A stretch of DNA of 19,405 bases, taken from the NCBI GenBank assembly GCA_043778225.1, contig JAYWGM010000068.1, positions 1-19,405 on the forward strand, read 5' to 3'. Of the stretch, positions 149 through 19,404 are shown in pieces. This DNA is from Deinococcales bacterium. Its GTDB lineage: Bacteria > Deinococcota > Deinococci > Deinococcales > JAAFIG01. The translations under genes and the position numbers were made by a program. Positions within the stretch are counted from its first letter, which is position 1. Each line of letters opens with the position of its first letter. The notes beneath the pieces are model-generated. The model made no database searches, had not been told where the DNA came from, and was given only the letters and a program-made list of their open reading frames with translations.

Positions 149-841
149 ATGCGGTTTTACTTTATTCGTCATGCCCAAAGCATCAACAATGCGCTTTTTG
201 AGGCGACTGGCGCAGAGAAAGGACGCTCCGAAGACCCTGAACTCTCGAGCCTTGGGATTAAGCAAGCGGTTGCTCTGGGCGATTTTCTAAGTCGCAATAA
301 CGACCCGCTCGATGGTGGGCAGCGTTTTACCCATTTGTATTGCAGCACCATGACCCGAGCCATCCAAACCGCGCTCGAGGTCGGGCGTGGTACAGGTCTA
401 GCCCCCGTTATCTGGGAAGAGTGGCATGAGACGGGTGGCATTTGGCTCGAGCAGGACGGCGTACAAGTTGGGCAAGCCGGAAAAAACCGAGTCGAACTCG
501 AGGCACGTTTTCCAGGCTTTGATTTTTCGATCTATGGCACACAAGGTTGGTGGTCTCGAGCCGCCGAAACCGACTGCGCTCCTCGGGCAGTCGGTGCGTG
601 GGCAGCCTTGCTTGAGCGACATGGCGGCACAAAAGACCGTGTGGCGATTGTCTCACATGGGCATTTTTATGCCCACATCATGGGGCAAGCCCTCGGACTC
701 GAAGTTGGTTCGGGCAAGCACTGGTTTATGCTCAATAACACCGCCATGACTCGGATTGATTTATCCGAAACCGAGCATCTGAGCCGCGAATTAAAATATG
801 CCAACCGCTTGGCGCATTTATCGCTCGAGCAAATAAGCTAA
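149..841 (+). CDS. Histidine phosphatase (phosphoglycerate mutase-like) family protein
   Basis: N-terminal FIRHAQS (RHG-type catalytic motif), STMTRAIQTA and a C-terminal VAIVSHG motif. Start moved from 38 to ATG 149 because the upstream part translates an AT- and pyrimidine-rich intergenic stretch. Stop overlaps the sbcC start (TAATG). Confidence 0.85.
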   Translation: MRFYFIRHAQSINNALFEATGAEKGRSEDPELSSLGIKQAVALGDFLSRNNDPLDGGQRFTHLYCSTMTRAIQTALEVGRGTGLAPVIWEEWHETGGIWLEQDGVQVGQAGKNRVELEARFPGFDFSIYGTQGWWSRAAETDCAPRAVGAWAALLERHGGTKDRVAIVSHGHFYAHIMGQALGLEVGSGKHWFMLNNTAMTRIDLSETEHLSRELKYANRLAHLSLEQIS

Positions 842-3800
842 TGCGTCCGCTTCGCTTAGAGCTACAGGGCTTTACTTGTTTCAGGGATTTTACAGTCATT
901 GACTTTAGCAACCTCGAGCTATTTGCGATTGTTGGTCAGACTGGTGCGGGTAAATCGAGCATTTTGGATGCGCTTACGTTTGCGCTGTTTGAGCAAACGC
1001 CGCGCTTGGGTTCTAAACCCGCCAAAGAACTGATTTCGCAAGGCAGCCAAGGCATGAGTTTGGCGCTCGAGTTTGAAGCCTCCGATGGGCGTAAATACCG
1101 TGTCGCAAGAACCTACTCGAGTAAAAGCTCGGAGGTGCGGTTTGAGCGCTTTGAAGCCGAAAAGTGGGTCACGGCAGTCGAGCAAATTAAGAAAAAAGAG
1201 GTTGCCGAAGCCATCGAGCGGGTCGTTGGTCTGGACTTTGAAGGGTTTACTCGAGCGGTGCTGTTACCGCAGGGCGAATTTGACCGTTTTTTGCGTGGCG
1301 AACCCAAGCAGCGCCGCGACCTCCTAAAAAACCTGATTGGCTTAGAACGCATCGAGATGATGCAAAAACGCTCGGGCGAATTGGCACGGGAAGCCAAAAC
1401 CAAATCCGAAACAATGCAGACTCAACTCGAGGCATTAGCCGATGCCACACCCGATGCCCTAGAAGCCCTAGAGTTAGAACAAATCGCGCAGCAAAAAGCG
1501 CTTGAAGAAAGTTTGGCTGCCCTTGGTACAGTCCGCCAACAATTGCTGGAAGCCCGAGAAGTCCATCGGATCGAGACCAGTTTAGGACAAGTCAAACTTG
1601 AAATAGAAAATTTAGAAAAGCAGAATCCGCAAATTGACTTGGCAAAAGAACGCTTATCACAAGCCCGACGGGTGGCTGGGGTTTTACCGTTGCTCGAAAA
1701 TCTGCTGCATCTCGAGGCGCGGCGACAACAGACCATCAGCCAAATGACCAACGCCCAAAAGCGTTTGGCGGTTGCCCAAGAAGAACAACAACAAGCCCGA
1801 GAAGCCCTAGAAACCGCCCGAGATGCGGCGCTGGACTCGGGTAGGCTCGAGGCTTTGGTGTTGCAACTCAGCAGCTTACAGCCCCGCTTGGAACGCTTAC
1901 AGGCATTGGGTGGGCGTTTAGCTCGGCAGGCAAACAGTCAGCCTTTTAGCGAAGCGGCTTGGAGCAAGCTCGAGCGACTTGGCGCAGAATTACCGCTTTT
2001 AGACAGAATCGCCAAAGCCTTATCCGAACTCGAGCGCCGCGATAAGGAATTAAATGGGGCTGCCAAGCGCTTAGAAGATGCCCAAACAGCTTTACTCGAG
2101 CAACAAAAAAACTTGGCAAAGTTGCAAAAGCAACAGCTTGAGGATTCGGCACAACTCAAAGAAACACGGCTGGCTGCTGCTAAAATTCCAGCCCTCGAGC
2201 TAACTTTGCGCCGACTCGAGGCACTCAAACCCAAATTACAAAGGCTTTTTGAACTGGGCGGTGATTTAGCACTAACTGAGGGCGGTGTGGTTTTTAGCGA
2301 ACGTGCTTGGTCGCGGCTCGAGACGGTGCAGAGCGAGCTTAGAACCCATGCCAGACTGATAAAACAACAAGCCACCCAGAAAACCGAACTTGAATTGGCA
2401 CGCGATGAACTGCTGAAATGGGAAGGGCAACTCGAGGAAAGCCAAACCAGACTCGAGGGCTTAAAAATTGAAGGTAAAGCCGCCGCCGCCGCCCAAAAAG
2501 CCCTCGAGATGGCACTTGAAGCCGCCAAGCGCCAGAACATTGCGGCTGAGTTGGTGCGTGGTTTAAGCCTTGGCGACCCTTGCCCAGTCTGCCAAAAACC
2601 ACTGACAACCTTGCCCGATTTATCTGGCTCGAGTGTACCCAATGCCCAAGAAGCCCTTGATGCTGGTTTACTCGAGGTCAGCCGTCTGCGCGATGAATAC
2701 ACCCGACTCAAAGAAGCCAGAAAAAACCATGAATTCAATAAAACCAAAGCCGATAAGGATTTAACCCGAACTGAGCAAGCAATGCGCGAAACTGCCGCCG
2801 AGCGCCAACAACTCGAGCAGGGCTGGCAGGATGTTTTAACCGATGTCGACGACCCAAAAAGCGCTGTTCAGATGGCTCGGGCTGCCCTTTTGGCGGGGTT
2901 AGCCAGCGAACTGGCTGGGGCAACCGACCTAGAAGCCCGTATAGCCGCTATTTTAGAAGAGAAAACCACACTCGAGGCTGCTGAGAAAAAAGCCAATCAG
3001 CAAGAAAACGAAACCCGCGCCCAACTTGCCCGCAGCCAAAGTGCCACCGAAGCTGCCCAAGTGTTGCTCGAGAGCCGCTTTATAGAACAAGAAAATGCCC
3101 AACAAGAAAAAATTCGACTGACCGAACAACGCCTTGGTTTGGTCTCCGAGCGCCAAGATTTTGTGGTCAAACTCGAGGCTCAACTTGGCACAAGTTCCAA
3201 CCCAGAAGTGGCTTTGGGTCAGGTTCAGTCCGCCCTTTTGGCGGGTTTAGCCAACGAATTACTCGAGGCTGGGGCAACCAATAACCTGAGTGGCGACATA
3301 AAAACCCTCAAAATCCAGCGCCAGCAACTCGAGCAAACCGAACGTCAAGCCACAGAAACCTTCTCGAATAAAAAAAGTGCCACGGCTGGTTTACAAAGTG
3401 CTTTTGCGGCAGCCCAGCAAAACCTCGAGCTAGTGCAACAAGAAGCCCAAAGCGCCCAACTCAAGACCCAACAGCAACTCGAGCAGTTGGGATTTGAAAC
3501 CAGCCAAGCCGCCCAAGCTGTGGCATTGCCCGAAACCAAAATGCAAGAACTCGAAGCAGGCATCCAACAGCATCAGCAAAACCTGATTCAAGCCAGTCGC
3601 CGTCAGCGCGAACTGTTGCACGAACTGGACGGACGCAGCCTCGAGAGACCACTTTTAGAACTCGAGCAGCAAATCAAAGACCTTGAAGTCAGCAGCCAAA
3701 GCCAGCGCGGTTATCTTGGGCGGCTCGAGGCACAAAAAACCCAGTTGGTGCAACACATCAGTCAAGCCAAAAACCTGCGGCGCGAACAAAATAATTTTGA

Positions 3801-4296
3801 GAAACGTTTTGATGTCTACGCCGCACTAGCAACCGACCTCAAAGGCAACGAATTTCAGGATTATCTTTTGGCGGGGGTACAACAACAACTGCTGCACCGC
3901 GCCAGTAAAACCATGCTTGGAATTACCCGAGAACGCTACACGCTCGAGTTTATCGATTCAGAATTTCATGTCCGCGATGCTTGGAATGGACTCGAGGCGC
4001 GTGGTGTAAAAACTTTATCTGGCGGCGAAAGTTTTATTGCTTCGCTTTCTTTGGCGCTGTCTTTGTCCGACTATTTGGCAGGCAACCAAGCGCTGGGCGC
4101 ACTTTTTCTCGATGAGGGCTTTGGCACACTCGATGCTGATGCACTTGAAATGGTCGCCAACACCCTCGAGAATCTGCAAACCCAAGGGCGAATGGTTGGC
4201 GTGATTACCCACGTTCCAGCCCTAGCCGAACGCTTGCCGGTGCGCTTACTGATTGAAAAAGCCCAAGACACCAGCCGTGTCAGTTGGGATTCTTAG
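841..4296 (+). CDS. sbcC: SbcC/Rad50-type SMC-like ATPase (SbcCD nuclease subunit C), unusually long at 1151 aa
   Basis: Walker [11 protein letters not shown]-loop LLPQGEF, central zinc hook CPVC (nt 2581), signature LSGGE, Walker B/D-loop [12 protein letters not shown]-switch VITH, and long heptad coiled coils. Confidence 0.95.
1807..3500 (+). repeat. Paired internal duplications in the sbcC coiled-coil arms, 348-nt (116-aa) period on each side of the zinc hook; boundaries approximate
   Basis: N-arm: ...[13 protein letters not shown]...[10 protein letters not shown] versus ...[13 protein letters not shown]...[10 protein letters not shown] (LGG at nt 1906 and 2254). C-arm: [14 protein letters not shown] versus [16 protein letters not shown] (nt 2884 and 3232). 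Both offsets are 348 nt. Confidence 0.85.
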
Positions 4297-5984
4297 CCAC
4301 CCAAGATACTCGAGTCTATTTTGAAATCTTCGGCAATCAGCCGCGCCGTCATTTTGGCGCTCATCATCACGCTCGGTGTGCCGCCGCCCGGTTGTGCGCC
4401 CGCCCCAACCATATAAAAACGTTCGATGTCCTCGGAGCGGTTGTGCGGTCTGAAAAAGGCGCTTTGTGCCAGAATCGGTTCGGGTCCAAAAGCATTGCCA
4501 AGGTAACTCGAGAGCGTGCCTTCAAAGTAGTCTGGGTCAATAAAACTCTGGTAGACCAAGCGCTGGCGCAAATTGGGAATATAACCGCGCTCCTCGAGAA
4601 AACGCAGAATTTTATCCACAAAAGGCTGCCCTAAAAGTTCCCAATCGAGTTTCGAGCCATTGTGCGGCACAGGGACAAGCGTATACGCCACATGATGCCC
4701 TTCTGGCGCAAGGCTTGGGTCGGTCAAGCTGGGAATATGCAGATATTGCGAGAAGTCTTTAGCCAGAATTTTACGCCCAAAAATATCTTTTAAGAGTTCT
4801 TCATAGCGCGGTCCCAAAATAATGTTGTGGTGCTTGAGGTTGGTTTCTAAACCATCGGCTTTGAAGCCAAAATAAACCACCACCAAACTCATGCTTTGCG
4901 GCGCGATTTTGACCTTAAAATCTGAGTTCCAGTTGCGAAACTTATTGGGAATCAGCTTCATGTAGGTGTTGGCATAATCGCCATTGGAAACCACCAAATC
5001 TGCCTCGAGGCTCTCGTTATTCTCGAGGGTTACACCTTTGGCAATTTTCTTTGAGAAACGCCCGACCGGCTCTGCCCCCAATTCATTTTGGATTTGAACA
5101 CTCGAGACAGGTGCATTAAAGCGAATTGTGCCGCCCATCTCTTCAAATTTTTGCACAAAGGCATTGACCAACGCGCCAGTTCCCCCAAGCGCAAAGTGTA
5201 TCCCCCATGTTTTTTCGACAAAGTGAATCATCGCGTAAATCGAAGGCACAGATAACGGATTGCCACCAACCAGCAGCGTCTCGAAGCTAAAGACTTGCTG
5301 CATTTTTGGGTTCTTAAAGTATTTTTTGGCAAAACCAAAAAGTGTCCGAATCGCATCGAGTTTCATTAAGTCTGGCACAACTTTAAGCATACTTACAACA
5401 TCGCCAAAGTGGGTATAACCAAGCTCGAGAAAACCACGTTCAAAAATTGCTTTAGCGTCGCTATGAAACTGCTCATAGCCAAGCAAATCCTCTGGAGCAA
5501 GGGTCTTTATTTGACTGCGGGTGCTGACTGGATCGCCATCGTAATCAAAGAATGTACCATCGTCAAAATAAATGCGGTAAAACGGCAAAATCGGCACAAG
5601 CTGTACATATTTGCTGGTATTGACCCCACCCGAGACCCCTGTCTTGACCCGAGCATTCTCGGTCAGGGTGTGCGGCGGGTAATCTGGGGTCGAAAGCATG
5701 GCTTTATTTGGCTCGAGACTAAAAAGTTCTTCGATAAAATGCGGCACGGTAATCACAGTTGGACCCATGTCAAAGGTAAAGCCTTGGTGCGGCTTGAGGG
5801 CGGCACGCTGTTTAACTTCTGTCCAAACCCCGTCTTGCTGCACGACTTTACGCACATACGCCCGCCCGCCGGGCGCATCGAGTTTCTCGAGAATTGTGGT
5901 CTCAAAACCAAGGCTTTGTAGCCGAATACCAAGGCTCAGTCCACCAATGCCACTGCCAATAATAATTGCTTTACGTCGTTCCAT
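4293..5984 (-). CDS. crtI: Phytoene desaturase (CrtI family)
   Basis: FAD-binding [20 protein letters not shown] and C-terminal [18 protein letters not shown]. Carries the PDYPP...GVSGG insert I recognise from Deinococcus CrtI. Stop overlaps the sbcC stop convergently by 4 nt. Confidence 0.92.
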
Positions 5985-5997: not shown

Positions 5998-6036
5998 AAC
6001 TCGAGATGCCGTAAACACCAAAGGGACAAACTACAG

Positions 6037-6828
6037 TTAGGATTCAAAGCTCATCCCCATGACGCTGTAGCCACCATCCACATAAATGGTTTCGCCAGTG
6101 GTTGCTCCAGACATTGGGCTAAACAAAAATAAGCACATATTGCCCACATCGTCAAAAGTTGCATTTTTGCCCATCGCACTGGTCTTGGCGGCTTTCTCGA
6201 GCATCTGGGTAAAACCGGGGATACTCTTGGCGGCGACCGTTCGCATTGGTCCGGGGCTGACGCAATTAACCCGAATTCCAGCCCTGCCAAGGTCGTAAGC
6301 CAGATAACGGCTGGTGGCTTCAAGAGCAGCTTTGGCGACCCCCATGACGTTGTACTTTGGCACGACTTTTTCCGAGGCATAATAGGTCAGCGCCACAATA
6401 CTCGAGCCAACTGGCATGATTGGCGCGGCGCGTTGCGCCAGTGCCAATAAGCTGTAGGCACTAATATCCAAGGCAATTTTCCAGCTTTCTCGAGAGGTTT
6501 CGACAAATGGATTTTCTTGGGTTTCTCGAGGCGTAAAAGCAATCGCGTGCATCAAGTAATCAATCCGCCCGAATTGGGTTTTTATTTTGGTAAACAGCGC
6601 ATCTATTTGCTCGTCGTACATCACATCGCAGACCTCGAGCATCAAAACTTGCTCACCAAATGGCGCAGTTAATTTCTCGAGGGCGGGAATGTTGCGTTCG
6701 CCCTGAAACGAGAAAATACATTTGCAACCCGCCGCCAGCAATTTCTTGGCGGCTGCCCAGCCAAGGCTGTATTCGTTCTGCACGCCAGCAATCAGCGCAA
6801 TTTTATCGGATAAGTCTATATTGACCAT
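6037..6828 (-). CDS. fabI: Enoyl-ACP reductase (NADH)
   Basis: SDR fold with ALIAGVQNEYSLGW, HAIAF, catalytic YNVMGVAKAALE and RVNCVSPGPMRT. Start reassigned from 6915 to ATG 6828 (MVNIDLSDK), which follows an extended -10 box. Confidence 0.93.
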   Translation of the reverse strand: MVNIDLSDKIALIAGVQNEYSLGWAAAKKLLAAGCKCIFSFQGERNIPALEKLTAPFGEQVLMLEVCDVMYDEQIDALFTKIKTQFGRIDYLMHAIAFTPRETQENPFVETSRESWKIALDISAYSLLALAQRAAPIMPVGSSIVALTYYASEKVVPKYNVMGVAKAALEATSRYLAYDLGRAGIRVNCVSPGPMRTVAAKSIPGFTQMLEKAAKTSAMGKNATFDDVGNMCLFLFSPMSGATTGETIYVDGGYSVMGMSFES

Positions 6829-6835
6829 ATGCGAG

Positions 6836-6844
6836 ACGATAGCA
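6836..6844 (-). promoter_or_regulatory. Extended -10 (TGcTATCGT) of leaderless fabI
   Basis: TGnTANNNT 7 nt upstream of ATG 6828. Confidence 0.65.
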
Positions 6845-6922
6845 CACCTACAAGACAGTTTTGCGTTGTTTGCCACTAGCCATACTGTGACTTGTGCGCT
6901 AACTCGAGCAGCCAAAACCGTG

Positions 6923-6928
6923 TAGGCT
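6923..6928 (+). promoter_or_regulatory. -10 box (TAGGCT) of the leaderless iorA-like gene
   Basis: TANNNT 6 nt upstream of ATG 6935; divergent from the fabI promoter. Confidence 0.6.
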
Positions 6929-6934
6929 TAAACC

Positions 6935-7432
6935 ATGAACTTAATGGTCAATGGAAAATCCACGCTTGTGCCTGAGTCACAGCGTCTCGAGCCACTTGTC
7001 TGGGTGCTGCGTGACACCCTCGGGTTGGTGGGTACGCGCTACGGCTGCGGCATTGGGGTTTGCGGAGCGTGCAATGTACTACTGGATGGCAAAGTCGTGC
7101 GCTCTTGTCAAACTCCAGTCCAGACAGCCTTGGGTAAAGAAATCATCACGCTCGAGGGTCTGGCAATGGGGAACGAGTTGCATCCAGTGCAACAAGCCTT
7201 TCTCGAGAATCCTTTGCAGTGCTGCTGGTGCATGACTGGGCATATCATGAACGCGGTCGAATTGCTCGAAAACAATAAGCAGCCTTCGCCCAACCAGATT
7301 GATGATGCCATGAACGATAATTATTGTCGTTGCGGTGGCTATAACAGCATTCGTGCCAACGTCGTTCGGGCTTCGGAAATCGCCTCGAGCCAGCCAGCCG
7401 CCAAACGCTTGAGCATTCGGAGGAAATCATGA
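6935..7432 (+). CDS. (2Fe-2S)-binding small subunit, isoquinoline 1-oxidoreductase alpha / CoxS-like
   Basis: GTRYGCGIGVCGACNV...SC (first 2Fe-2S cluster) and LQCCWCMTG...YCRCGGY (second cluster). ATGA overlap with the next gene. Confidence 0.9.
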   Translation: MNLMVNGKSTLVPESQRLEPLVWVLRDTLGLVGTRYGCGIGVCGACNVLLDGKVVRSCQTPVQTALGKEIITLEGLAMGNELHPVQQAFLENPLQCCWCMTGHIMNAVELLENNKQPSPNQIDDAMNDNYCRCGGYNSIRANVVRASEIASSQPAAKRLSIRRKS

Positions 7433-9624
7433 AACGCGCTCCTAAACCTAAGCCCGATGCGGTAACTCGTCCCAAGCCCGATGCGGCGACTCGTTGGAAG
7501 ACCACGCGACGGCGTTTGTTAATCGGAGCGGGTAGCCTTGGTGTGTTGGCGGTCGGTGGCTATTTTGGTCTCGAGGCGGGTCGTCCGCTTTTGGTAGACC
7601 GAATCGAAGGCGCAGGTGCGCCAAGCAGTCCAGCCCCTACTAATCCAAATCTGTGGTTTGAACTTAAAGCCGATAAAATTGTGTTTTTTGCCCCAAAATT
7701 TGAAATGGGTCAGGGCATTCAAAGTGCGCTGGCGCAAATCGCTGCCGAAGAACTCGAGGTCGATTGGCAAAGTCTCGAGTTACGTCAACCAGATTCGCAA
7801 CATGGTTTTGCACCCACCTTTATGTTTACTTTTGGCAGTACCTCGGTCAAGGATTTGTACCAACCGATCCGCGAAATGGCAGCCAGTCTGCGCGAAATGC
7901 TGCGAACCGAGGCGGCTTTACAACTAGGAACAGATAGCTCGAGTATCGAAATAAAAAATGGTCTGTGCAGCCTAAAAACCGATTCAAGTAAAACCTTGTC
8001 GTATGGCGCAGTGGTGGCAGCCAAAAAAGGCGAATGGGTGATGCCTAAAACCCCACCCACGCTAAAAGCCAAAAGCGAATTTACCACGATTGGTAAGCCG
8101 TTAAGCCGCTTGGATGCCAAGTCCAAAGTCATCGGGCAGCCTGTTTACAGCATGGATGCTCGAGCCGAAGGAATGCTGTACGGGGCGGTGGCTCGAGCGC
8201 CAAGGTTTGGGGCAAAACTCGAGACTGCCACGGCTGGACAAGCCGAAAGTCAAGTTGGTGTGGTTAAAGTTGTAATAGATTTGGCTGCTCATTTTGCGGG
8301 GGTGGTAGCCGAGACTCGCACCCAAGCTCGCAACGCCTTAAAATTCCTAAAGCTGACTTGGGTTGGCGGCACGAGTATTTCTCAAGCCGAATTGGACACC
8401 CTCGTGACTGCCAAAGCTGGGGCTGGTGTGGTGGTTCGTAAGCGTGGTCAGTCTGGCTTAACTGGCGATGTGGTTACGGCTTCGTACCGCACGCCATTTG
8501 CCGCTCACGCTCACCTCGAGCCTTTGGCAGCCTTAGCCGATGTTAAAGAAAAAAGCATTGATGTTTGGGTCGGTACGCAAGCTGCAAATTCCGACGAAAG
8601 CGCGATTAAAAAAGTAGTACCAGGCAATCGCAGTATTAAAATTTACCCGATGCAAATGGGTGGCAGTTTTGGGCGCAAAGGCAGCCAGAGTGCTGCTCCA
8701 GAAGCCGCCAGACTCTCGGCGGCAGTCGGTAAACCAGTCCATGTGGCGTGGACTCGAGAAGAAGAAATGCAGCAAAGTTTTTATCGCCCACCGACCAATA
8801 CCCTGCTCCAAGCCACGCTCGAGAATGGCATGATTACGGGGGTAGAGCAGGTGACTGCCAGTGGTGATATTCTATTTAGCATCATTCCGATTCCAGCTTT
8901 TATTAAGAACACCATCGGCTTTGATTTTGGTGTGTTAAGCGGACAATTTCTGCCGTACAGCCTTGCCAATTACACAGTTCGTAGCCAACGTATTGACCTG
9001 CCGATTCCAACCGGACCGTGGCGCGGTGTGGGCTTAATGCCCAATGTTTTTGCTTTAGAGAGTTTTATGGATGAATTGGCATTGGCAGCTAAGACCGACC
9101 CACTCGAGTTTAGGTTAAAACACACTTCTAACCCACGCATGAAAGCCGTACTCGAGGATGTCCAAATCCGTTCTGATTGGGCAAAACCAGCCCCAAATGG
9201 CGTGGCTCGAGGTGTGGCGTACTGCACAGCGGTTGGCACATTTGTAGCGATGGTTGTGGAAATTCGGCTCGAGGGCAAAGAAATTTTGGTGCAACGTGTA
9301 ACGGTCAGTATAGACGCTGGAATTGTGGTCAATCCGACCAATGCAGCCCTGCAAGCACGGGGCAGTGTGGTCATGGGGCTGAGTTCGACCTTGCTCGAGA
9401 AAATTGTTATCGAGAACGGCGCAGTGGTACAAAGTAATTTTAAGGATTATCCGCTTATCACCCTCAAAGCCACGCCTAAAATTATTGATGTGCATTTTAT
9501 GGAAAACGCCGAAGCCCCTTCGGGCATGGGCGAACCCGTGATTGGACCAGTGCCAGCCGCCGTTGCCAATGCCTTATTTGCCCTGAATGGACAACGCCTA
9601 CGGGAATTGCCATTGGTGCTGTGA
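7429..9624 (+). CDS. Molybdopterin-binding large subunit, isoquinoline 1-oxidoreductase beta (IorB)-like, with Tat-like signal
   Basis: TTRRRLLIG followed by a hydrophobic stretch (twin-arginine-like), EMGQGI, GSTSV, AHAHLEP, MGGSFGRK, GPWRGVG and SGMGEP, all typical of IorB-type xanthine dehydrogenase family subunits. Confidence 0.88.
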   Translation: MKRAPKPKPDAVTRPKPDAATRWKTTRRRLLIGAGSLGVLAVGGYFGLEAGRPLLVDRIEGAGAPSSPAPTNPNLWFELKADKIVFFAPKFEMGQGIQSALAQIAAEELEVDWQSLELRQPDSQHGFAPTFMFTFGSTSVKDLYQPIREMAASLREMLRTEAALQLGTDSSSIEIKNGLCSLKTDSSKTLSYGAVVAAKKGEWVMPKTPPTLKAKSEFTTIGKPLSRLDAKSKVIGQPVYSMDARAEGMLYGAVARAPRFGAKLETATAGQAESQVGVVKVVIDLAAHFAGVVAETRTQARNALKFLKLTWVGGTSISQAELDTLVTAKAGAGVVVRKRGQSGLTGDVVTASYRTPFAAHAHLEPLAALADVKEKSIDVWVGTQAANSDESAIKKVVPGNRSIKIYPMQMGGSFGRKGSQSAAPEAARLSAAVGKPVHVAWTREEEMQQSFYRPPTNTLLQATLENGMITGVEQVTASGDILFSIIPIPAFIKNTIGFDFGVLSGQFLPYSLANYTVRSQRIDLPIPTGPWRGVGLMPNVFALESFMDELALAAKTDPLEFRLKHTSNPRMKAVLEDVQIRSDWAKPAPNGVARGVAYCTAVGTFVAMVVEIRLEGKEILVQRVTVSIDAGIVVNPTNAALQARGSVVMGLSSTLLEKIVIENGAVVQSNFKDYPLITLKATPKIIDVHFMENAEAPSGMGEPVIGPVPAAVANALFALNGQRLRELPLVL
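7447..7494 (+). repeat. 24-nt tandem duplication encoding PKPDAVTR / PKPDAATR
   Basis: CCTAAGCCCGATGCGGTAACTCGT followed by CCCAAGCCCGATGCGGCGACTCGT, 21 of 24 positions identical. Confidence 0.85.
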
Positions 9625-10183: not shown

Positions 10184-10208
10184 AATCCCCCGAAATTTTC
10201 TCGAGGGA
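10176..10208 (-). terminator. Intrinsic terminator downstream of tRNA-Gly
   Basis: Minus strand reads TCCCTCGAG-AAAAT-TTCGGGGGA-TTTTATTTTT: a GC stem with G-U pairs followed by a U tract, 8 nt after the tRNA CCA. Confidence 0.75.
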
Positions 10209-10216: not shown

Positions 10217-10290
<74 letters not shown>

Positions 10291-10303
10291 AATAGCGAAA
10301 CGT

Positions 10304-10332: not shown

Positions 10333-10371
10333 TCCCTGGGCATCGTGGCATTCTGCCCGAGCCAAAGGCGT

Positions 10372-10377
10372 TACACT
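10372..10377 (+). promoter_or_regulatory. -10 box (TACACT) of the leaderless ABC permease gene, overlapping a CTCGAG
   Basis: TACACT-cgagact-ATG(10385). Confidence 0.65.
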
Positions 10378-10384
10378 CGAGACT

Positions 10385-11560: not shown

Positions 11561-11561
11561 A

Positions 11562-12236: not shown

Positions 12237-12322
12237 ATTTAGACCGAAGTAAAAATCTAGAAACTTTTTTACGGTTTTCCTGTATTCTGAGCGTGGTGCG
12301 TTTAACGTATCAGGGAGAGAAC

Positions 12323-12838
12323 TTGAAAAAACAATTGGCGATAATTATTTCTGGGTTTTTCTTTTTTAGCGTACTCGGTCAGGGTACAAAATTAGAACGA
12401 CACAATCCGATGCCCGAAATCACCATGCAAACCATGCGTGGCGAAAACATTCAACTCTCGAGTTTACGCGGTAAGCCTGTGCTGCTTAACTTCTGGGCTG
12501 CTTGGTGTGGACCCTGCCGCAATGAAATTCCTGTACTTGAACGTTTACAAGCCAAGTACCCGAGCATTCAAATCATTGGTGTGAATGTGGGCGAGAGTCA
12601 ACGCACGATCAATCGTTTTTTAGCCGATAACCCTATTTCGTATCCAGTTTGGATGGATCAACCCGATGGTGGTACAAATGTCGAACAACAAATGACGCAA
12701 TGGCAAGGACAAGCGAGTGGTTGGAGCATTCCATATACGGTTCTTGTGCGTAAAGATGGCATCATAGATGAAACCATTCTTGGCTTTGATGGTTCTGGAC
12801 GTGAACTCGAGCAAGCCATTCGAGAGGTCTTACAATGA
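12323..12838 (+). CDS. TlpA/ResA-family thiol-disulfide oxidoreductase, exported
   Basis: LLNFWAAWCGPCRNEIP, IIGVN and cis-Pro motif SIPYT, with an N-terminal signal or anchor. TTG start at 12323 follows GGGAG; alternative GTG starts at 12293 and 12296. Confidence 0.85.
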   Translation: MKKQLAIIISGFFFFSVLGQGTKLERHNPMPEITMQTMRGENIQLSSLRGKPVLLNFWAAWCGPCRNEIPVLERLQAKYPSIQIIGVNVGESQRTINRFLADNPISYPVWMDQPDGGTNVEQQMTQWQGQASGWSIPYTVLVRKDGIIDETILGFDGSGRELEQAIREVLQ

Positions 12839-13710
12839 AATGGAGCGTCATGAAATTCTTAAAAAATACCATCGTTTTCTTTGGCATCATCTTCAGTGCT
12901 GCCCAAGCCCAAACATATCTGCCAGATGTCTCGAGTAATCCACTGTACGGCGAATTGCTTTGGCACACACTGGCATACCGACAAGATGTGGCTGTCTATC
13001 CGGGTGAATTTGCACCGCGAATGCCACTTGAAATTATGATTCCTGAAGGTGGGCGCTTAATTGGCTCGGTGGTACGAGAATATGGCTCGCGGACTCGAGA
13101 AGTAACTGTCGTGCTAGAGAGCAAATTAACTTACGAAGAAGTCGGTGGTTTCTATAGACCTAAAGTCAAAGCACCGTGGCTTGAGCAATTACCAACCCCA
13201 AGCGGCTTTAGTTTTTCATCAAACGGGCAAAATGGTGGAGGCTACTTGCCTTTGTGCAACACAGCCACAGGTACTCGAGTTGATATATACGCCAATCCAA
13301 AAAATGTAGCCAATTGGCAAGCCAGCCCAAGTTTTATTTACATTCGATTTTTTGAAGCTGGACAGTCTGGCAATGGCTGCAACGATACACCATGGCAATT
13401 TCCAGTTTTAATTGTGCCAAACAACACCAGTCCATTTGGTGGAAATGGTGCTAACTTTGGCGATTTTAATTGCTCAGCCCTATCCTTTAATCTTCGCAAT
13501 ACCACTGCAAAAAAGCTCTTTGATGGCTTTGCGGCACAATTGCCAAGTACATGGCAACGTCTATCGGTTAGCGAGGATGAAACTGGTGTGGCAGCGGTCT
13601 ATCGTTATCTAGACCCCAAACAATCGGGCATTGCGGTCTTATCCGTCAATCAATTTAAGGAGCGTCCTGATGCTTACAGCGCACGCTTAATCGCCCTACC
13701 TCAACCCTAA
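12835..13710 (+). CDS. Secreted hypothetical protein
   Basis: 291-aa ORF with an ATGA overlap to tlpA, signal peptide ending AQA, three Cys residues, and no recognised catalytic motif. Confidence 0.7.
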   Translation: MKWSVMKFLKNTIVFFGIIFSAAQAQTYLPDVSSNPLYGELLWHTLAYRQDVAVYPGEFAPRMPLEIMIPEGGRLIGSVVREYGSRTREVTVVLESKLTYEEVGGFYRPKVKAPWLEQLPTPSGFSFSSNGQNGGGYLPLCNTATGTRVDIYANPKNVANWQASPSFIYIRFFEAGQSGNGCNDTPWQFPVLIVPNNTSPFGGNGANFGDFNCSALSFNLRNTTAKKLFDGFAAQLPSTWQRLSVSEDETGVAAVYRYLDPKQSGIAVLSVNQFKERPDAYSARLIALPQP

Positions 13711-13739
13711 AGCTCGAGACTCCTGTACCACGGTGTTTT

Positions 13740-13748
13740 TGTTAGACT
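13740..13748 (+). promoter_or_regulatory. Extended -10 (TGtTAGACT) of leaderless hisC
   Basis: TGnTANNNT 6 nt upstream of GTG 13755. Confidence 0.65.
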
Positions 13749-13754
13749 ACAAGG

Positions 13755-14816
13755 GTGCAAACTTCTATCGGTATTCGCGCCGCCGTTCGCAACGCACCAG
13801 CCTATCCTTTTGTGGCGATAGAAGCGGCTATTAAACTTGACCAGAACGAATCTGGCTATGATTTTCCGACTGAACTCAAGCATTTGGCTCTCGAGAAAAT
13901 GCTGCACACCAACTGGAATCGTTACCCCCAAATGCACGCCGAGACCTTGCGCCAAAAAATCGCGGCTCGAGTCGGCTGGACAGAACATGGTGTGGTGGTG
14001 ACACCGGGCAGCAATGTGCTGATTCATGCCTTGGCACAAGCGGCTGGCATTGGGCAAAGGGTCTTGAGTGTTTCGCCCGCTTTTAGTTTGTACAGCTTAT
14101 CGGCGGCTTTGCTCGAGGCGCAAATGCTCGAGCCACGATTGAATTCTGATTTTAGTTTACCGATGCAAAGCCTAACTCACGAACTGAAACAACCCACCCC
14201 TGGTGTTTTATTTTTGGCTGTGCCACACGCCCCAACTGGCGCAATGCCGAGTTTTGAAGAAATTACAGCATTGCTCGAGGCTGCCTCCCAAGACTGGATT
14301 ATTGTTCTCGATGAAGCCTATTTTGAATACAGTGGGCGCTCACATTTGGCGCTGCTCGAGACTTACCCTAATCTGTGCATCCTTCGCACTTTTTCTAAAG
14401 CATGGGGCTTAGGCGGGGTGCGGCTTGGGTATTTATTGGCACAACCAGAACTTGCCACCCACATTCAAAAAATCCTTAGCCCATTTAATGTTTCTGCCCT
14501 GACCCAAGCGGTTGCCGAAGTGGCGCTTGATAACCCAAGCTATGCCCAAACTCGAGTGAGCGAAAGTATCCTCGAGCGTCAACGGGTTTTTGCAGCCCTC
14601 GAGCCGCACCCAACTTGGAAAATTTATCCAAGTGCTGCCAACTATCACCTGATTCGTACCAAGGATGCCAAGCTCGCTCATAGCGACCTGCTGGAACGCG
14701 GGATTTTGGTACGAAAACAAGATGGTTATCTGGGGCTGCAAGGCTGCATTCGGGTTTCGGTTGGCACGCCCGAAGAGAACACGGCTTTTGTAACCGCAGC
14801 CCTTGAGTTGCGTTAA
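13755..14816 (+). CDS. hisC: Histidinol-phosphate aminotransferase (PLP-dependent, class I/II)
   Basis: KLDQNES, NRYP, LDEAYFEY, PLP-lysine motif RTFSKAWGLGGVRLGY and IRVSVGTPEEN. Confidence 0.88.
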   Translation: MQTSIGIRAAVRNAPAYPFVAIEAAIKLDQNESGYDFPTELKHLALEKMLHTNWNRYPQMHAETLRQKIAARVGWTEHGVVVTPGSNVLIHALAQAAGIGQRVLSVSPAFSLYSLSAALLEAQMLEPRLNSDFSLPMQSLTHELKQPTPGVLFLAVPHAPTGAMPSFEEITALLEAASQDWIIVLDEAYFEYSGRSHLALLETYPNLCILRTFSKAWGLGGVRLGYLLAQPELATHIQKILSPFNVSALTQAVAEVALDNPSYAQTRVSESILERQRVFAALEPHPTWKIYPSAANYHLIRTKDAKLAHSDLLERGILVRKQDGYLGLQGCIRVSVGTPEENTAFVTAALELR

Positions 14817-16306
14817 GGCAGTTGAATATCGGCTAGGCGCTGAATTTGTCCTCGAATCACATTGACTTCTAAACTGCTTGAAAAGCTGCTAATACTCAGT
14901 TTACCCTCGGGCAAGCGCGGACTGCCATAGTAGCCATTGGCATCTGAGCGCACTAAAATACTCGAGCCAGCGGCACTGCGTAACTCGAGTTCGGTATTGC
15001 TGACTCCAGCGCCGTTTTTGACCACCCGCCCCAAAATCCCCGAGAGTTTAGCGACATCGGGTTTCCCCCAAGTCACGGGACTCGAAAAGAGGCTCGAGAA
15101 GGCTTTTTGAAAATCCAATTTGCCGTTGTTTTCGGTTTTTTTAGCATTTAGCACTTCTAAGTCGGCGGTGCGGTAGCTGTAGCCAATCCAGCCCGAAATG
15201 CCAGCTGTGCCAATCGCTCGGGTGTACTGCTTTCTCGAGTCAGCAAGGCTATTGACAAAAATCCCAGCCCCGGTTGCGACCAAGGCGTTTTCTTTGGTGG
15301 CAGCCGCAAAAGCATTCCAGCCATCGAATTCTTTTTGCTGCATTGGGTCGTATTCGCGCTTATAATTCATCGGGATATTTAGGTCTAAAATCCCAGCTTG
15401 TGTCCAGCCAGCCCAGTCTTGCAGCACCTCGGCATAGGTGCGGGTGCGCTTAAATTCCTCAAGGTTGCGCGGTGCGGTGCGGTAAGTAATTGTGGCGGCA
15501 CTGACCCAGAGGTTTGGCTTGCGGATTTTGGCTTCTAAGTAAATTCGCCGCACCAGATTGCTGATTTGGTCGCGCCGCCAGTCTGTCCATTGTGTATCCA
15601 AAGGTTCGGGGGTGTCGGTGCGCTCGGTCTCGAGCCGAAAGCGATTTAAGGCGGTTGGGTTATAGCCCCAGACGGGGCGGTATTGATTGTCGCTGCTGTC
15701 TGGGTAGCGCACACGGTCAAACTGAATGCCATCTATATCGTAGTTCTCGAGAACCGACAAATAATACTGCACGATGTACTCGGCTGCCATCGGATGCCCG
15801 ACATCAAGAATCTCGTCCTTACCAGCGCGGCTCGAGCCAGAGGTGTTGAATGTCACCCAAGGGTCGGTGCTGCTGCGTCCGTGGGTTGCCATGACATGAT
15901 TGCTCGAGAAATATGGCTCGGAGGTATTAAAAGCGGCAGTCGTGATAATCCAAGCATGAACCTGAATCCCAAGCGGTTTGGCTTTTTTAATAATCGCTAA
16001 AAGTGGGTCAAAGTTCTTGGCTAGTTTTGGGTCGCTGCTGCGTGGCACCCGAGCAAGGTTACAAAAGCAATCCATACGCCGTCCAACTTGGACAAAAAGC
16101 GCATTGAGTTTCATATTTTTGGCATACGTCACTAAGGCTTCCACTTCGGTTTGGGATTTGAAACCCGCTCCAAAGGCATCCACCCAAAGCCCGCGCAATT
16201 GTGGCGTACCGACGCGGGGTTGCATACCCTGCACCATGGGAGGTTGAGCCAGACTCGAGCCAAGCAGTGCCAAAATAAAAACAACCAAAAGAGAAAGTAA
16301 ACGCAC
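14813..16306 (-). CDS. Secreted glycosyl hydrolase-like 10 (GHL10; YddW/DigH-like) protein with a C-terminal beta-sandwich domain
   Basis: Signal peptide, LRGLWVD, FDPL, GIQVHAW, YDIDGIQFDRVRYP, WTDWRR, QDWAGW and LNIPMNY. Start probably the second GTG (16306), 6 nt after TAAGCT. Convergent TTAA overlap with hisC. Confidence 0.85.
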   Translation of the reverse strand: MRLLSLLVVFILALLGSSLAQPPMVQGMQPRVGTPQLRGLWVDAFGAGFKSQTEVEALVTYAKNMKLNALFVQVGRRMDCFCNLARVPRSSDPKLAKNFDPLLAIIKKAKPLGIQVHAWIITTAAFNTSEPYFSSNHVMATHGRSSTDPWVTFNTSGSSRAGKDEILDVGHPMAAEYIVQYYLSVLENYDIDGIQFDRVRYPDSSDNQYRPVWGYNPTALNRFRLETERTDTPEPLDTQWTDWRRDQISNLVRRIYLEAKIRKPNLWVSAATITYRTAPRNLEEFKRTRTYAEVLQDWAGWTQAGILDLNIPMNYKREYDPMQQKEFDGWNAFAAATKENALVATGAGIFVNSLADSRKQYTRAIGTAGISGWIGYSYRTADLEVLNAKKTENNGKLDFQKAFSSLFSSPVTWGKPDVAKLSGILGRVVKNGAGVSNTELELRSAAGSSILVRSDANGYYGSPRLPEGKLSISSFSSSLEVNVIRGQIQRLADIQLP

Positions 16307-16312
16307 CACTCG

Positions 16313-16318
16313 AGCTTA
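16313..16318 (-). promoter_or_regulatory. -10 box (TAAGCT) of the leaderless GHL10 gene, overlapping a CTCGAG
   Basis: Minus strand TAAGCT-cgagtg-GTG(16306). Confidence 0.55.
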
Positions 16319-16837: not shown

Positions 16838-16866
16838 TTCTCAAGCTAAGTTTTGTTGACTATCAT
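16838..16866 (+). promoter_or_regulatory. Candidate ald promoter
   Basis: TTCTCA-17 nt-TATCAT, about 95 nt upstream of the ald ATG. Confidence 0.45.
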
Positions 16867-16960
16867 AAAGCCTCAAGCATTGAAAAAAAAGCTAAAAGCA
16901 AACCCTTTTGACCCTTTTACCTTTTCCCCTTTTTTCACCTTTTTTCACCAAGGAGTTTTT

Positions 16961-18067
16961 ATGTTAATTGGTATTCCCAAAGAAGTCAAAGTCAAAGAAA
17001 ACCGTGTCTCCATGACCGCCGCTGGTGTGACCGCTTTAATCAAACGTGGGCATGACGTGTTGGTACAGAGCGGGGCTGGGCTTGGTAGTGGCATCACCGA
17101 CCTCGAATACGAAAAAGCTGGAGCTAAACTGGTCTCGAGTGCTTCGGAGGCATGGGCAGCCCAGATGGTGGTCAAGGTCAAAGAACCGATTGAATCCGAA
17201 TATGCTTTTTTGCGCGAAGATTTAACGCTTTTTACGTATTTGCACTTGGCTGCCGAAAAACACCTGACCGAAGCCTTATTAAAGGCGGGAACAACTGCCA
17301 TTGCCTACGAAACAGTCCAAGTCGAAGATGGCAGCCTGCCGCTTTTAACCCCCATGTCCGAAGTGGCTGGGCGACTTGCACCACAAGTTGGCGCGGCGTG
17401 TTTACTCAAGCCCAACGGCGGGCGTGGGGTGCTGCTCGGCGGTGTTCCGGGCGTGATTCCGGGGCGGGTGGTAATTATTGGCGGTGGTGTGGTCGGTACA
17501 AACTCAGCAAAAATTGCAGTTGGTATGGGCGCTCGAGTGATTATTATGGATGTTTCGCACCGTCGTTTGGCGTACTTGGATGATATTTTTGGTGGGCGTA
17601 TCCAGACCATGGCAAGCAATGAATCGAACATCCGTGATGTGATTCGCAGTGCCGACTTGGTGATTGGTGGGGTGCTGATTCCGGGCGCAAAAGCCCCGCA
17701 TTTGATTACCAAAGATATGCTCTCCTCCATGCCCGAAGGCAGTGTGATTGTGGATGTTGCCGTAGACCAAGGCGGTTGTGTCGAAACAATTCATGCCACC
17801 ACCCACGACAACCCAACTTATGTGGTGGATGGCGTGGTGCATTATGGTGTTGCCAATATGCCCGGCAGCGTACCGCGCACCAGCACCTTTGCCCTGACCA
17901 ACCAAACCATTGGCTATGCCCTAAAGTTGGCTGACCGTGGTCTCGAGGCACTCAAACAAGACCCTGCGCTCTTAAAAGGCTTAAACACCCGACATGGCAA
18001 ACTGACTTATAGAGCCGTCGCCGATTCGTTTGGTCTCGAGTTTATTGCACCCGAAAGCACCTTATAG
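16961..18067 (+). CDS. ald: Alanine dehydrogenase
   Basis: MLIGIPKEVKVKENRV, VKVKEP, FTYLHLAA, LLTPMSEVAGR, IIGGGVVG, DVAVDQGGC and YGVANMPG. Start reassigned from 16853 to ATG 16961, after SD AAGGAG. Confidence 0.96.
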   Translation: MLIGIPKEVKVKENRVSMTAAGVTALIKRGHDVLVQSGAGLGSGITDLEYEKAGAKLVSSASEAWAAQMVVKVKEPIESEYAFLREDLTLFTYLHLAAEKHLTEALLKAGTTAIAYETVQVEDGSLPLLTPMSEVAGRLAPQVGAACLLKPNGGRGVLLGGVPGVIPGRVVIIGGGVVGTNSAKIAVGMGARVIIMDVSHRRLAYLDDIFGGRIQTMASNESNIRDVIRSADLVIGGVLIPGAKAPHLITKDMLSSMPEGSVIVDVAVDQGGCVETIHATTHDNPTYVVDGVVHYGVANMPGSVPRTSTFALTNQTIGYALKLADRGLEALKQDPALLKGLNTRHGKLTYRAVADSFGLEFIAPESTL

Positions 18068-18191: not shown

Positions 18192-18446
18192 TTAGGCTTC
18201 GACCCGTTTTTTACCGGGAACATTGGTTTGCTGCATCTGCGAAGCCGCTTGTCCGACTTGCACCCCAAACATCCATGCCAAGCGGTGCATAAACGACACG
18301 GTTTCGTAGTCGCCAGCCAGAACTCGGTCACGCATATAGGCATCCACACCAGTCGGAAATTGGACACCTTTGACTTCTTCGCCATTGTGCTGTTTCATGC
18401 GTTCGATAAATGCCCGAACCTCGGCTAAACCCTCGGCTTCTTTCAT
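18192..18446 (-). CDS. ddrH: Small Deinococcus DdrH-like protein
   Basis: 84 aa. The segments FMHRLAWMFGVQVGQAA and C-terminal KRVEA resemble my recollection of Deinococcus DdrH; not verified by search. Leaderless TACACT (18453-18458) lies 6 nt before the ATG. Confidence 0.65.
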   Translation of the reverse strand: MKEAEGLAEVRAFIERMKQHNGEEVKGVQFPTGVDAYMRDRVLAGDYETVSFMHRLAWMFGVQVGQAASQMQQTNVPGKKRVEA

Positions 18447-18495
18447 GGTCTTAGTGTAATACTTTTATGGCACGAATGCGTAGCGCCAAACACGA

Positions 18496-19404
18496 TTAGG
18501 TATTTTCGTCATCCTCGAGTAAAGGCAGCGTAATTGTAAAAACCGTGCCTTGACCCAGTTCAGACTGCACTGCCACCGTACCACCATGGACTTTAGCAAT
18601 TTGCGCTACAATCGCTAAGCCCAGCCCCGCGCCTCTCGAGGTTGCGCCTTTGACAAATTTTTCAAAAATATGCGGCAGCAACTCTGGGGCAATTCCAGCC
18701 CCCTGGTCGGTCACAATAAACTCAAGTTTTTGCCCAACACGCCGCGTCTCGAGTTGGACTTTTTGCACGCCTGCGGCTCGGACAGCATTGGAGGTCAGGT
18801 TACGCAACAACTGGGCTAATCGGTCGGGGTCGCCAAGTAGCTCGAGCGATTCTTGGGGAAATTTTAGGTTGGTGATGTTAAATTCGCTGGCGACTCCCGC
18901 CATTAAATCCTTGGCATCCAAAACAAAAGGCACAAGTTCTTGAACCACTTCACCGCGCGAGAGTTGCAGTAAATCCGAGACCAAACGGGTCATGTTCTTG
19001 GCAACTCGAGTCGCATCATCAAGAATTTTCTGACTTTCTGGGCTGGCATCGCGCTTAGCTTGGCGCACATACCCTTCAAAGGCAGTCACGGGAGTGCGAA
19101 GCTCATGGGCAACTTCGGCAAGAAAAGTTTTTTGGGCCGCAAAAGCCCCATTTAAGCGCAAGACAAGTCGGTTTAGGGTTTCGACCAAAACTCCGAGTTC
19201 GTCCCGAGCGCCGTTGTATAGCAGTGGCTTTAAGTTGGATTCGCTTAAATCTTGGGCTTGGCGGGCCACACTAATCAGCGGACGTAAACCCAATTGGGTC
19301 AGCAGATAGCCACCGAGCAAGGCCAGCAGCACCAAAATTGCGGTCACAATCAGGGTTGCAACCTGCACCCGCGATGCCAAATTATTGATGTACTGGGTGC
19401 TGGC
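18496..19404 (-). CDS. Membrane sensor histidine kinase (TM-HAMP-HisKA-HATPase), 5' end outside the window
   Basis: HAMP motif RDELGVLVETLN, H-box AHELRTP, N-box NLTSNAVR and G-boxes DQGAGI / GAGLGLAI. The frame stays open to the window edge (...ASTQYINNLASRV). Confidence 0.92.
   Translation of the reverse strand, partial: ASTQYINNLASRVQVATLIVTAILVLLALLGGYLLTQLGLRPLISVARQAQDLSESNLKPLLYNGARDELGVLVETLNRLVLRLNGAFAAQKTFLAEVAHELRTPVTAFEGYVRQAKRDASPESQKILDDATRVAKNMTRLVSDLLQLSRGEVVQELVPFVLDAKDLMAGVASEFNITNLKFPQESLELLGDPDRLAQLLRNLTSNAVRAAGVQKVQLETRRVGQKLEFIVTDQGAGIAPELLPHIFEKFVKGATSRGAGLGLAIVAQIAKVHGGTVAVQSELGQGTVFTITLPLLEDDENT

Follow-up and report, generated by a model that had tools for sequence, protein, structure and literature searches.

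The hexamer CTCGAG is almost certainly a genuine highly iterated palindrome (HIP) in an uncultured member of the Deinococcales, represented here by a contig of 19,405 nt (the window, that is, the whole stretch that was analyzed; contig C68 of genome G000). The window contains 130 copies, the first at position 244 and the last at 19005–19010, and the genome contains 24,877. We are very confident that the element is an exact 6-bp word, repeated about once per 140–230 bp and kept by a pressure that is specific to this sequence and works at the level of DNA, not of codons or peptides. This pressure covers all six positions, every reading frame and intergenic DNA, and it overrides codon choice. The explanation that we favor, with a probability of about 0.4, is that CTCGAG serves as a self-DNA signal in DNA uptake and/or recombination and would spread by molecular drive.

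Two hundred dinucleotide-preserving shuffles of the window gave a mean of 2.71 copies (standard deviation 1.69, maximum 8), and none of the 200 reached 130; the enrichment over the shuffle mean is ∼48-fold. An earlier note on this DNA had estimated about 130 copies over 244–19010, at about one per 150 bp and 25–30 times chance. The exact count is 130 and the mean spacing 145 bp, and the enrichment is strong as stated, with a factor for the window that is higher than the estimate. As the note had described, the sites lie on genes of both strands and in all three frames. The 16 longest open reading frames (ORFs) contain 126 of the 130, 91 in plus-strand genes and 35 in minus-strand genes, and these are read as CTC-GAG in 83 cases, as nCT-CGA-Gnn in 18 and as nnC-TCG-AGn in 25. 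The four sites outside these ORFs start at 6000, 10200, 13713 and 16309. Three of the five sites that had been called non-coding (6000, 10200 and 13713) are indeed intergenic; the other two, at 6903 and 10376, are covered by the 5′ ends of the longest ORFs that can be drawn at their positions (6037–6915 on the minus strand and 10319–11560 on the plus strand), and their status hangs on the true start codons. The 16 ORFs are of housekeeping type and also include ABC transporter parts and an aminotransferase. None is a DNA-modification gene by Pfam, in line with the note's remark that the window holds no candidate enzyme.

The G000 assembly comprises 4.03 Mb in 107 contigs, with 48.7% GC and 89% completeness. 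CTCGAG occurs once per 162 bp (6.2 per kb) and is the commonest hexamer by about threefold, with observed/expected ratios (O/E) of 26.7 under a zero-order model (base composition), 47.5 under a first-order Markov model and 15.1 under a second-order model. The reversed word GAGCTC, by comparison, has 24 copies. The motif is exactly six bases long: its flanks are almost unbiased, and 68% of all TCGA in the genome falls within CTCGAG. Density is the same within called genes and outside them (1/162 bp each) and is flat over gene starts and stops. The 1,359 short spacers, at 43% GC, have one site per 156 bp, which is 36 times chance at spacer GC. A HIP is described, in the available part of one study, as a short palindrome over-represented 15- to 300-fold (PMC5861425), and CTCGAG in G000 falls in this range and occurs both in non-coding DNA and in all frames of coding DNA.

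An excess of this kind might arise as a by-product, from composition or codon usage, from dipeptide demand or from assembly. GC-rich relatives use the codons CTC and GAG often, and the coiled coil of the SbcC/Rad50-like protein encoded in the window is naturally rich in Leu-Glu; its gene has 9.3 sites per kb, with 29 of its 32 sites read as CTC-GAG, that is, as Leu-Glu. We compared each frame with a null in which synonymous codons are shuffled within each gene, such that the protein and its codon usage (already inflated by the motif) are both kept. The long ORFs of G000 (n = 2,879) contain 12,134, 4,119 and 4,278 sites in the three frames, against expectations of ∼1,489, 347 and 294, an excess of 8-, 12- and 15-fold. 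CTCGAG spells 12,134 of the 17,484 Leu-Glu pairs (69%), whereas CTC elsewhere accounts for 9% of Leu codons. Every one of the 107 contigs carries the motif, with 4.0–10.6 sites per kb. A second sample from that study yielded independently assembled contigs, which show no differences to the window over eight listed stretches, among them 6367–9835 and 11135–13977, and the 16 nearest loci from metagenome-assembled genomes (MAGs), all from independently assembled uncultured ‘Deinococcales bacterium’, each have 4.6–8.2 sites per kb at 45–62% GC. Because the codon null (8–15-fold over per-gene amino acids and codons), the MAG loci, the spacers and the second sample all contradict it, a by-product is refuted as an explanation and its probability is practically nil; the ratio of 24,877 CTCGAG to 24 GAGCTC points the same way. 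The earlier note was thus right that amino-acid demand and codon bias do not suffice. It had named loss of the signal under a null that preserves the coding, confinement to one contig and an assembly artifact as possible refutations, and all three fail; the enrichment is kept under the Markov nulls that it proposed and, in all three frames, under the codon-shuffled null.

The effect on proteins is large. We took ∼400 kb each from three genomes: G006, a congener of G000; G013, from a different genus of its family; and G040, from a related family that almost lacks the motif. Reciprocal best matches to G000 served as orthologs. Over identical alignment columns from 74 orthologs, Leu-Glu occurs 443 times in G000 (O/E 2.21, ranking first among 285 dipeptides) and 203 times in the outgroup G040 (O/E 1.07). 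The reverse pair Glu-Leu, used as a control, is found 184 times in G000 and 188 times in G040, and Ser-Ser is found 129 times versus 53. Opposite 317 CTC-GAG codon pairs of G000, G040 keeps Leu-Glu in only 82. The Leu-Glu O/E is 2.44 in G006, 2.15 in G013 and 2.43 in G301, which also hoard the motif, and 1.11–1.63 in four genomes with few or intermediate sites. The pressure for CTCGAG has doubled the Leu-Glu content of proteins. A similar effect was described by Findlay and Redfield, for whom uptake sequences roughly doubled the encoded tripeptides when judged against reverse-peptide controls (PMC2817400, from the part of the paper available).

The pressure extends well beyond the window's genus. 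In a first set of 41 related genomes, comprising 19 from the window's family (five genera) and 22 outgroup genomes, all 19 family members have 12,028–35,442 copies of CTCGAG and 0–568 of GAGCTC. Six loci from cultured Deinococcus species (∼108 kb) have no CTCGAG at all. We then surveyed 301 genomes of the order with a completeness of at least 80%; this census includes the unpublished genome G240, on which no claim depends. All 16 census genomes of the window's family are extreme, with 4.3–6.8 sites per kb, and all 91 genomes of the Deinococcus-type genus g7 are depleted, with at most 0.27 per kb. Many genera in families f2, f4 and f5 are intermediate, at 1–3.5 per kb, some of them with very few GAGCTC. 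In family f3, G301 reaches 24,536 sites (7.0 per kb) and G275 reaches 13,562.

The intermediate levels are genuine. In 400-kb samples of two intermediate genomes, G019 and G025, in-frame sites are near the synonymous null (1.3- and 1.7-fold) and off-frame sites exceed it by 3.6–6.2-fold; the non-coding density is 1/659 bp in G019 and 1/336 bp in G025. By composition-based O/E, CTCGAG is the top hexamer in G025, comes 5th of 4,096 in G019 and ranks only ∼3,980th of 4,028 in G040. The enrichment is therefore a graded, order-wide continuum that is not limited to one family. The earlier note had attributed CTCGAG to a genome-wide process that creates or keeps it in ‘this lineage’ and had suggested a comparison across the Deinococcota. 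The genome-wide process is borne out by the 24,877 sites and by the family-wide pattern in the census, and the lineage-wide process stands, while confinement to one family does not, as the census shows graded enrichment with intermediate levels in other genera. Its suggestion that CTCGAG is frequent in another genus of the phylum, Meiothermus, agrees in substance with several other genera of the order at 2–3.5 per kb.

The sharpest contrast is between two genomes with the same genus label, G301 and G277. They are mutually closest in alanine dehydrogenase (82% identity), the marker that was used for finding relatives and for placing G301, G277 and G275, and both have ∼50% GC, yet their CTCGAG densities differ 25-fold. 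G301 (95 kb analyzed) has one site per 138 bp, 28 times chance, with the three frames at 6.5, 14 and 16 times the null, and CTCGAG spells 296 of its 366 Leu-Glu pairs. G277 (60 kb) has one site per 2,857 bp (O/E 1.4), its frames are at the null, and CTCGAG spells 15 of its 154 Leu-Glu pairs; it is neutral for the motif. At the single shared locus that could be aligned, none of five sites is common to both. Hoarding of CTCGAG is labile at the level of the genus, and because it is, a discrete determinant is indicated.

The same genomes differ in how far they have purged other palindromes. Palindromic hexamers below 0.1 of expectation number 34 of 64 in G000, 27 in G301 and 25 in G006, and at the low end 13 in G013, 9 in G040 and 4 in G277. 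In G000 the median O/E of palindromic hexamers is 0.077, 2% of non-palindromic hexamers fall below 0.1 of expectation, and GGCC occurs 131 times in 4 Mb. In the window itself we counted no GAGCTC, CTGCAG or GGATCC, and four GGCC. The non-palindromic word GGAGAG/CTCTCC is also strongly depleted in G000 (309 copies, O/E 0.17); a Type IIS or Type III system may recognize it.

Individual sites are not stable. Of 1,154 G000 sites, 629 (54.5%) are found at the same aligned position in G006, compared with 11.6% for a neutral hexamer at 69.8% identity; 245 of 1,191 (20.6%) are common to G013, and 1 of 506 to G040. Where Leu-Glu is conserved, G006 has the motif with a probability of 0.80 opposite a G000 site and of 0.55 otherwise (n = 661), and the corresponding values for G013 are 0.45 and 0.40 (n = 531). 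Motif presence is almost independent at genus-level divergence: sites are lost and re-created, and density is held. Because the between-genus excess is only 0.45 versus 0.40, much of the sharing could reflect independent re-creation. Since sites turn over while density is held, the pressure must be continuous. A single mutational path was considered and rejected, as the words that stand in place of a lost or gained site differ from it by ordinary synonymous transitions (CTCGAA, CTTGAG). Neither in G000 nor in the alignments is any one-step neighbor of CTCGAG specifically drained or inflated. The CpG-transition neighbors CTTGAG and CTCAAG total 2,762 copies in G000, against 2,696 for the outer transition neighbors TTCGAG and CTCGAA.

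Sites also repel one another at short range. For 18,541 Leu-Glu pairs, we determined what fraction is written CTCGAG at increasing distance from the closest other site. This fraction is 0.30 at 6–12 bp, a bin with some confounding, since copies at a gap of 6 would form the avoided word GAGCTC, and then rises through 0.42 (12–18 bp), 0.59 (18–24 bp), 0.66 (24–36 bp) and 0.73 (48–72 bp) to 0.77–0.79 at 100–300 bp. The trend is present within genes of average density and recurs in G006 and G013. Six further codon pairs of high frequency, examined as controls, all lack repulsion and if anything cluster. Within genes the deficit of pairs extends to ∼70 bp, whereas in non-coding segments, with counts fixed per segment, it is confined to distances under 18 bp (0.46 and 0.69 of expectation). 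Beyond ∼70 bp the pair correlation is flat to 1.2 kb across the 107 contigs of G000, with no periodicity, and spacing is slightly under-dispersed when motif-free islands are left aside (coefficient of variation, CV, 0.91). A gap of 6 between copies is never found because it would create GAGCTC. The gap of 7, CTCGAGNCTCGAG, occurs 123 times in G000 in 122 different contexts, compared with 30–53 times for gaps of 8–11. One reading of the repulsion is that it combines diminishing returns with a coding cost, and in any case it sets a quantitative constraint on any model.

The motif is missing from a small part of the genome. Only 19 gaps of at least 1.5 kb, totaling 45.5 kb, lack it in G000. We examined 15 of these islands: they have 31–47% GC and encode exopolysaccharide/O-antigen genes, two GmrSD+HEPN pairs, NACHT and KAP NTPases, a methyltransferase and an IrrE-HTH module. 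No Rfam match was obtained in the 15 islands, and rRNA was rejected as their cause. Judged by their gene content, the islands are imported defense and surface cargo. CTCGAG accordingly marks long-resident DNA, because motif-free stretches are few, low in GC and encode defense or surface-polysaccharide genes.

These features resemble those of a DNA uptake sequence. CTCGAG is scarce in recently acquired genes (the 15 islands), doubles the encoded peptides while leaving reverse peptides unchanged, and is spaced relatively evenly. If it acts as a self-DNA signal, fragments carrying it would be preferentially taken up and/or recombined, and alleles gaining a site would be passed on more often than alleles losing one. 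Another copy only a few tens of bases away would bring no gain, leading to repulsion between sites. A discrete recognition factor that is gained, lost or retuned would lead relatives to hoard, ignore or avoid the word. The statistics, the distribution and the dynamics of the motif are shown, including that the pressure can be switched between close relatives; both the link of CTCGAG to uptake or recombination and the existence of such a factor are things that we infer. Molecular drive of this kind has been described for uptake sequences in Pasteurellaceae and Neisseriaceae and is now also a proposal for HIP1. As far as the accessible text goes, two uptake sequences within 100 bp gave no increase in uptake in Haemophilus (PMC7811141), and genes without homologs lack uptake sequences (PMC2817400). 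For the cyanobacterial palindrome HIP1, the available parts of two reports state that it makes natural transformation more efficient, depending on methylation (bioRxiv 10.1101/2024.09.10.611283) and that its abundance correlates with pilus and competence genes and not significantly with its methyltransferases (PMC13756078).

Several observations weigh against an uptake or recombination signal. The repulsion to ∼70 bp within genes might have another cause, namely that two palindromic copies in one mRNA could pair into a hairpin that is avoided. An uptake model leaves unexplained both the co-variation of CTCGAG hoarding with the purge of other palindromes and the avoidance of CTCGAG in 91 of 91 genomes of genus g7. 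Uptake machinery gives no discrimination: ComEC is found in 18 of the 19 family genomes, in 40 of the 41 overall and in G301 and G275, but equally in all 22 outgroup genomes and in neutral G277, where the frame is intact (736 aa). Because it is present with and without the motif, ComEC does not track CTCGAG, and we rejected it as a discriminator between hoarders, avoiders and neutral genomes. Known uptake sequences are 9–12 bp, non-palindromic, present at ∼1 per kb and rarer in coding DNA, whereas CTCGAG is 6 bp, palindromic, present at ∼6 per kb and equally dense in genes. To our knowledge, cultured Thermus and Deinococcus are described as taking up DNA without sequence specificity.

A different mechanism, proposed for HIP by Elhai, is a methylation-linked repair ratchet, in which an orphan methyltransferase specific for CTCGAG or TCGA marks the site and methyl-directed nicking or mismatch repair favors the site-bearing strand, such that sites build up until most bases lie within repair range. 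According to the available text, that model predicts saturation near an existing site (PMC4390886), which resembles the repulsion seen here, and the transformation effect of HIP1 is itself methylation-dependent. The co-variation of hoarding with the palindrome purge (27 of 64 in G301, 4 of 64 in G277) is a sign of heavy restriction-modification (R-M) load, and G000 is rich in methyltransferases, with 8 Eco57I-type, 6 C5, 6 N6_N4 and 4 D12 matches. One of these, a 650-aa protein at locus L001 (G000:C65:14561-17980), has the architecture of M.TaqI, a TCGA-type architecture that fits the core of the motif, with N6_Mtase, Eco57I and TaqI_C domains.

The phylogenetic distribution of these enzymes does not follow the motif. 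The L001 enzyme was dropped as a candidate because it has close orthologs in only 2 of 40 other genomes, both of the same genus, and the copy in G003 (L016, G003:C4) has an in-frame TAA. An adjacent-gene R-M pair, L003, was also set aside, being present in only 2 of 41 genomes. We compared G000 with five further genomes that cover all five genera of its family, and no methyltransferase orthogroup (PF00145, PF01555, PF02384/PF07669, PF12950, PF02086) spans these six hoarding genomes, a negative that is limited to the chosen families and to genomes that are mostly 57–94% complete, with specificity unreadable from sequence. Within these limits, C5 enzymes were not found in G010, N6_N4 enzymes were not found in the single-contig G013, and TaqI_C was found in none of the five further genomes. 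D12 enzymes are present in all five, and the G000 copies are only ∼25% identical to them. No Vsr was found in G000, and MutH-type nucleases are found in only 2 of the 19 family genomes and 3 of 41 overall. NucS, found in 31 of 41 genomes, hoarders and avoiders alike, and not found in G000, is unlinked to the motif. A search for the XhoI family (PF04555) gave no match in G000 or in five depleted genomes, and as the control search was also silent (0 of 14) this result is uninformative. The CpG-transition neighbors, finally, are no commoner than the outer transition neighbors (2,762 versus 2,696). The profiling of orphan methyltransferases, Vsr and other nucleases that the earlier note suggested therefore returned nothing that tracks CTCGAG, and this survey found nothing in favor of the route through methylation-directed repair that it had listed. 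We regard the repair ratchet as unlikely.

The palindrome could alternatively be the selected binding site of an abundant dimeric protein that organizes the chromosome or protects DNA, with selection acting on density and not on single sites, and with the cell needing about one site per 150–200 bp. A perfect palindrome suits a dimeric binder, the density is equal in coding and non-coding DNA (1/162 bp), and the exclusion below 18 bp everywhere, extending to ∼70 bp in genes, fits a footprint; spacing is also slightly under-dispersed outside islands (CV 0.91). A role in nucleoid structure has been argued for HIP1 by Xu et al. (PMC5861425, in the part available). However, the pair correlation is flat from ∼70 to 1,200 bp, hence there is no periodic array, and no candidate protein was identified. 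A site needed for chromosome architecture would hardly turn neutral within a genus, as in G277, or be strongly avoided throughout a related one (91 of 91 genomes), unless the protein is dispensable. On balance such a binding site seems improbable.

A broader formulation is that the Deinococcales possess a gainable and losable genome-branding factor that recognizes CTCGAG, is not a classical methyltransferase–nuclease pair, and biases repair, recombination or uptake in favor of all six positions of the word. The presence, strength or inversion of this factor would switch genomes, including members of a single genus, between hoarding (4–7 per kb), intermediate, neutral and avoiding states. We put this forward as a speculative and rather doubtful proposal. 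If it is true, the G301/G277 pair and the 301-genome census would make the driver of HIPs solvable by phylogenetic profiling.

The closest known kind of element is the highly iterated palindromes of cyanobacteria. Like HIP1 (GCGATCGC) and the alternate cyanobacterial palindromes, CTCGAG is a short GC-containing palindrome at tens of times chance both within and outside coding DNA, is kept up in related genomes, is rare in recently acquired DNA, and varies or is lost between lineages. Unlike HIP1, which is 8 bp, cyanobacterial and present at roughly 1 per kb, CTCGAG is 6 bp, belongs to another phylum and reaches ∼6 per kb. Further differences are that no conserved cognate methyltransferase was found for CTCGAG in our survey, that its effect on proteins is measurable as a doubling of Leu-Glu, and that a related genus strongly avoids it. 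The quasi-periodicity reported for HIP1 is at 10–90 kb, whereas the correlation for G000, in 107 short contigs, is read only to 1.2 kb. Proposals for the mechanism of HIP1 include biased repair, nucleoid structure and a signal for uptake or recombination (PMC4390886, PMC5861425, PMC13756078 and bioRxiv 10.1101/2024.09.10.611283, each in the part available). The apparent lack of a conserved methyltransferase for CTCGAG parallels the 2026 finding for HIP1 of no significant correlation with methyltransferases, as given in the accessible part of that report.

The uptake signal sequences (USS) of Pasteurellaceae and DNA uptake sequences (DUS) of Neisseriaceae share with CTCGAG the use of one word genome-wide, in all frames and common to a whole family, the doubling of encoded peptides with reverse-order peptides unchanged, the absence from genes without homologs, and the lack of gain from a close second copy. 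They differ in that an uptake bias is shown experimentally for USS and DUS, whereas CTCGAG is known from sequence statistics, and in that ComEC is also present in genomes without CTCGAG. Their 9–12-bp asymmetric core at ∼1 per kb, under-represented in coding DNA, is not matched by CTCGAG. The target of the XhoI/PaeR7I R-M systems is the same word, and its avoidance in genus g7 (91 of 91) resembles classical restriction avoidance, but the window's family hoards it (27-fold in G000).

Cyanobacterial HIPs have been known for three decades without an agreed mechanism. A full-text literature search found no report of CTCGAG over-representation in Deinococcota, and neither ‘CTCGAG’ nor ‘Deinococc’ occurs in the text, supplementary tables aside, of Elhai 2015 and Rodriguez-Cruz 2026. 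The census, the G301/G277 contrast, the repulsion between sites, the turnover test and the negative enzyme survey are new. CTCGAG in Deinococcales adds a second case of a highly iterated palindrome, from an unrelated phylum, several times denser and with a doubled dipeptide. The graded series of hoarding, intermediate, neutral and avoiding genomes, above all G301 and G277, makes the mechanism tractable by comparative genomics and bench work. The word is also a sensitive marker of native versus imported DNA and an aid for binning uncultured genomes. XhoI-type enzymes would shred CTCGAG-rich DNA or fail on it, depending on its methylation.

Features of the window and some motif-free islands of G000 (window positions unless a contig is given)
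Feature	Coordinates	Strand	Basis or context	CTCGAG sites
Dispersed CTCGAG array	244..19010		mean spacing 145 bp, CV 0.77, gaps 14 (minimum) to 634 (maximum)	130
SbcC/Rad50-like ATPase gene	841..4296	+	Pfam AAA_23, SMC_N, SbcC_Walker_B	32
Intergenic CTCGAG	6000..6005		spacer between ORFs 4293-5984 and 6037-6915	1
FabI-type enoyl-ACP reductase gene	6037..6915	-	Pfam adh_short_C2, E 4.7e-80	7 (frames 3/1/3)
Molybdopterin oxidoreductase large subunit gene	7429..9624	+	Pfam MoCoBD_1/2	15 (three frames)
Intergenic CTCGAG	10200..10205		between redoxin ORF (end 10183) and tRNA-Gly gene	1
tRNA-Gly gene	10217-10290	-	anticodon TCC	
Intergenic CTCGAG	13713..13718		immediately past stop codon of ORF 12835-13710	1
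GHL10 glycosyl-hydrolase-like gene	14813..16309	-	Pfam	9 (6 off-frame)
CTCGAG at ORF edge	16309..16314		5′ edge of ORF 14813-16309 (-), extends into spacer	1
Alanine dehydrogenase gene	16853..18067	+	Pfam	4
Motif-free island	G000 C44:57429-63066			0
Motif-free island	G000 C40:7693-11073			0
Motif-free island	G000 C86:24231-26126			0
Motif-free island	G000 C70:76689-79170			0
Motif-free island	G000 C11:31446-33837			0

Neighboring genes of the window have orthologs on different contigs in every same-genus genome (G001–G007), at 67–87% nucleotide identity, and gene order is strongly scrambled within the genus. The stretch 10214–10335 around the tRNA-Gly gene is 89–100% conserved across the genus.

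Positions 1–103 of the window are a repeat with 98–100% copies at or near the ends of G000 contigs C30, C76, C58, C88, C100, C35 and C63 and 80–90% copies in same-genus genomes; most likely a mobile element ends here and interrupts the assembly. The opposite end, 18192–19405, encodes a histidine kinase and has an 87% paralog on contig C40 of G000. Within it, 60 letters of 18997–19405 differ from the contigs of both public runs, and this contig end may mix two paralogs.

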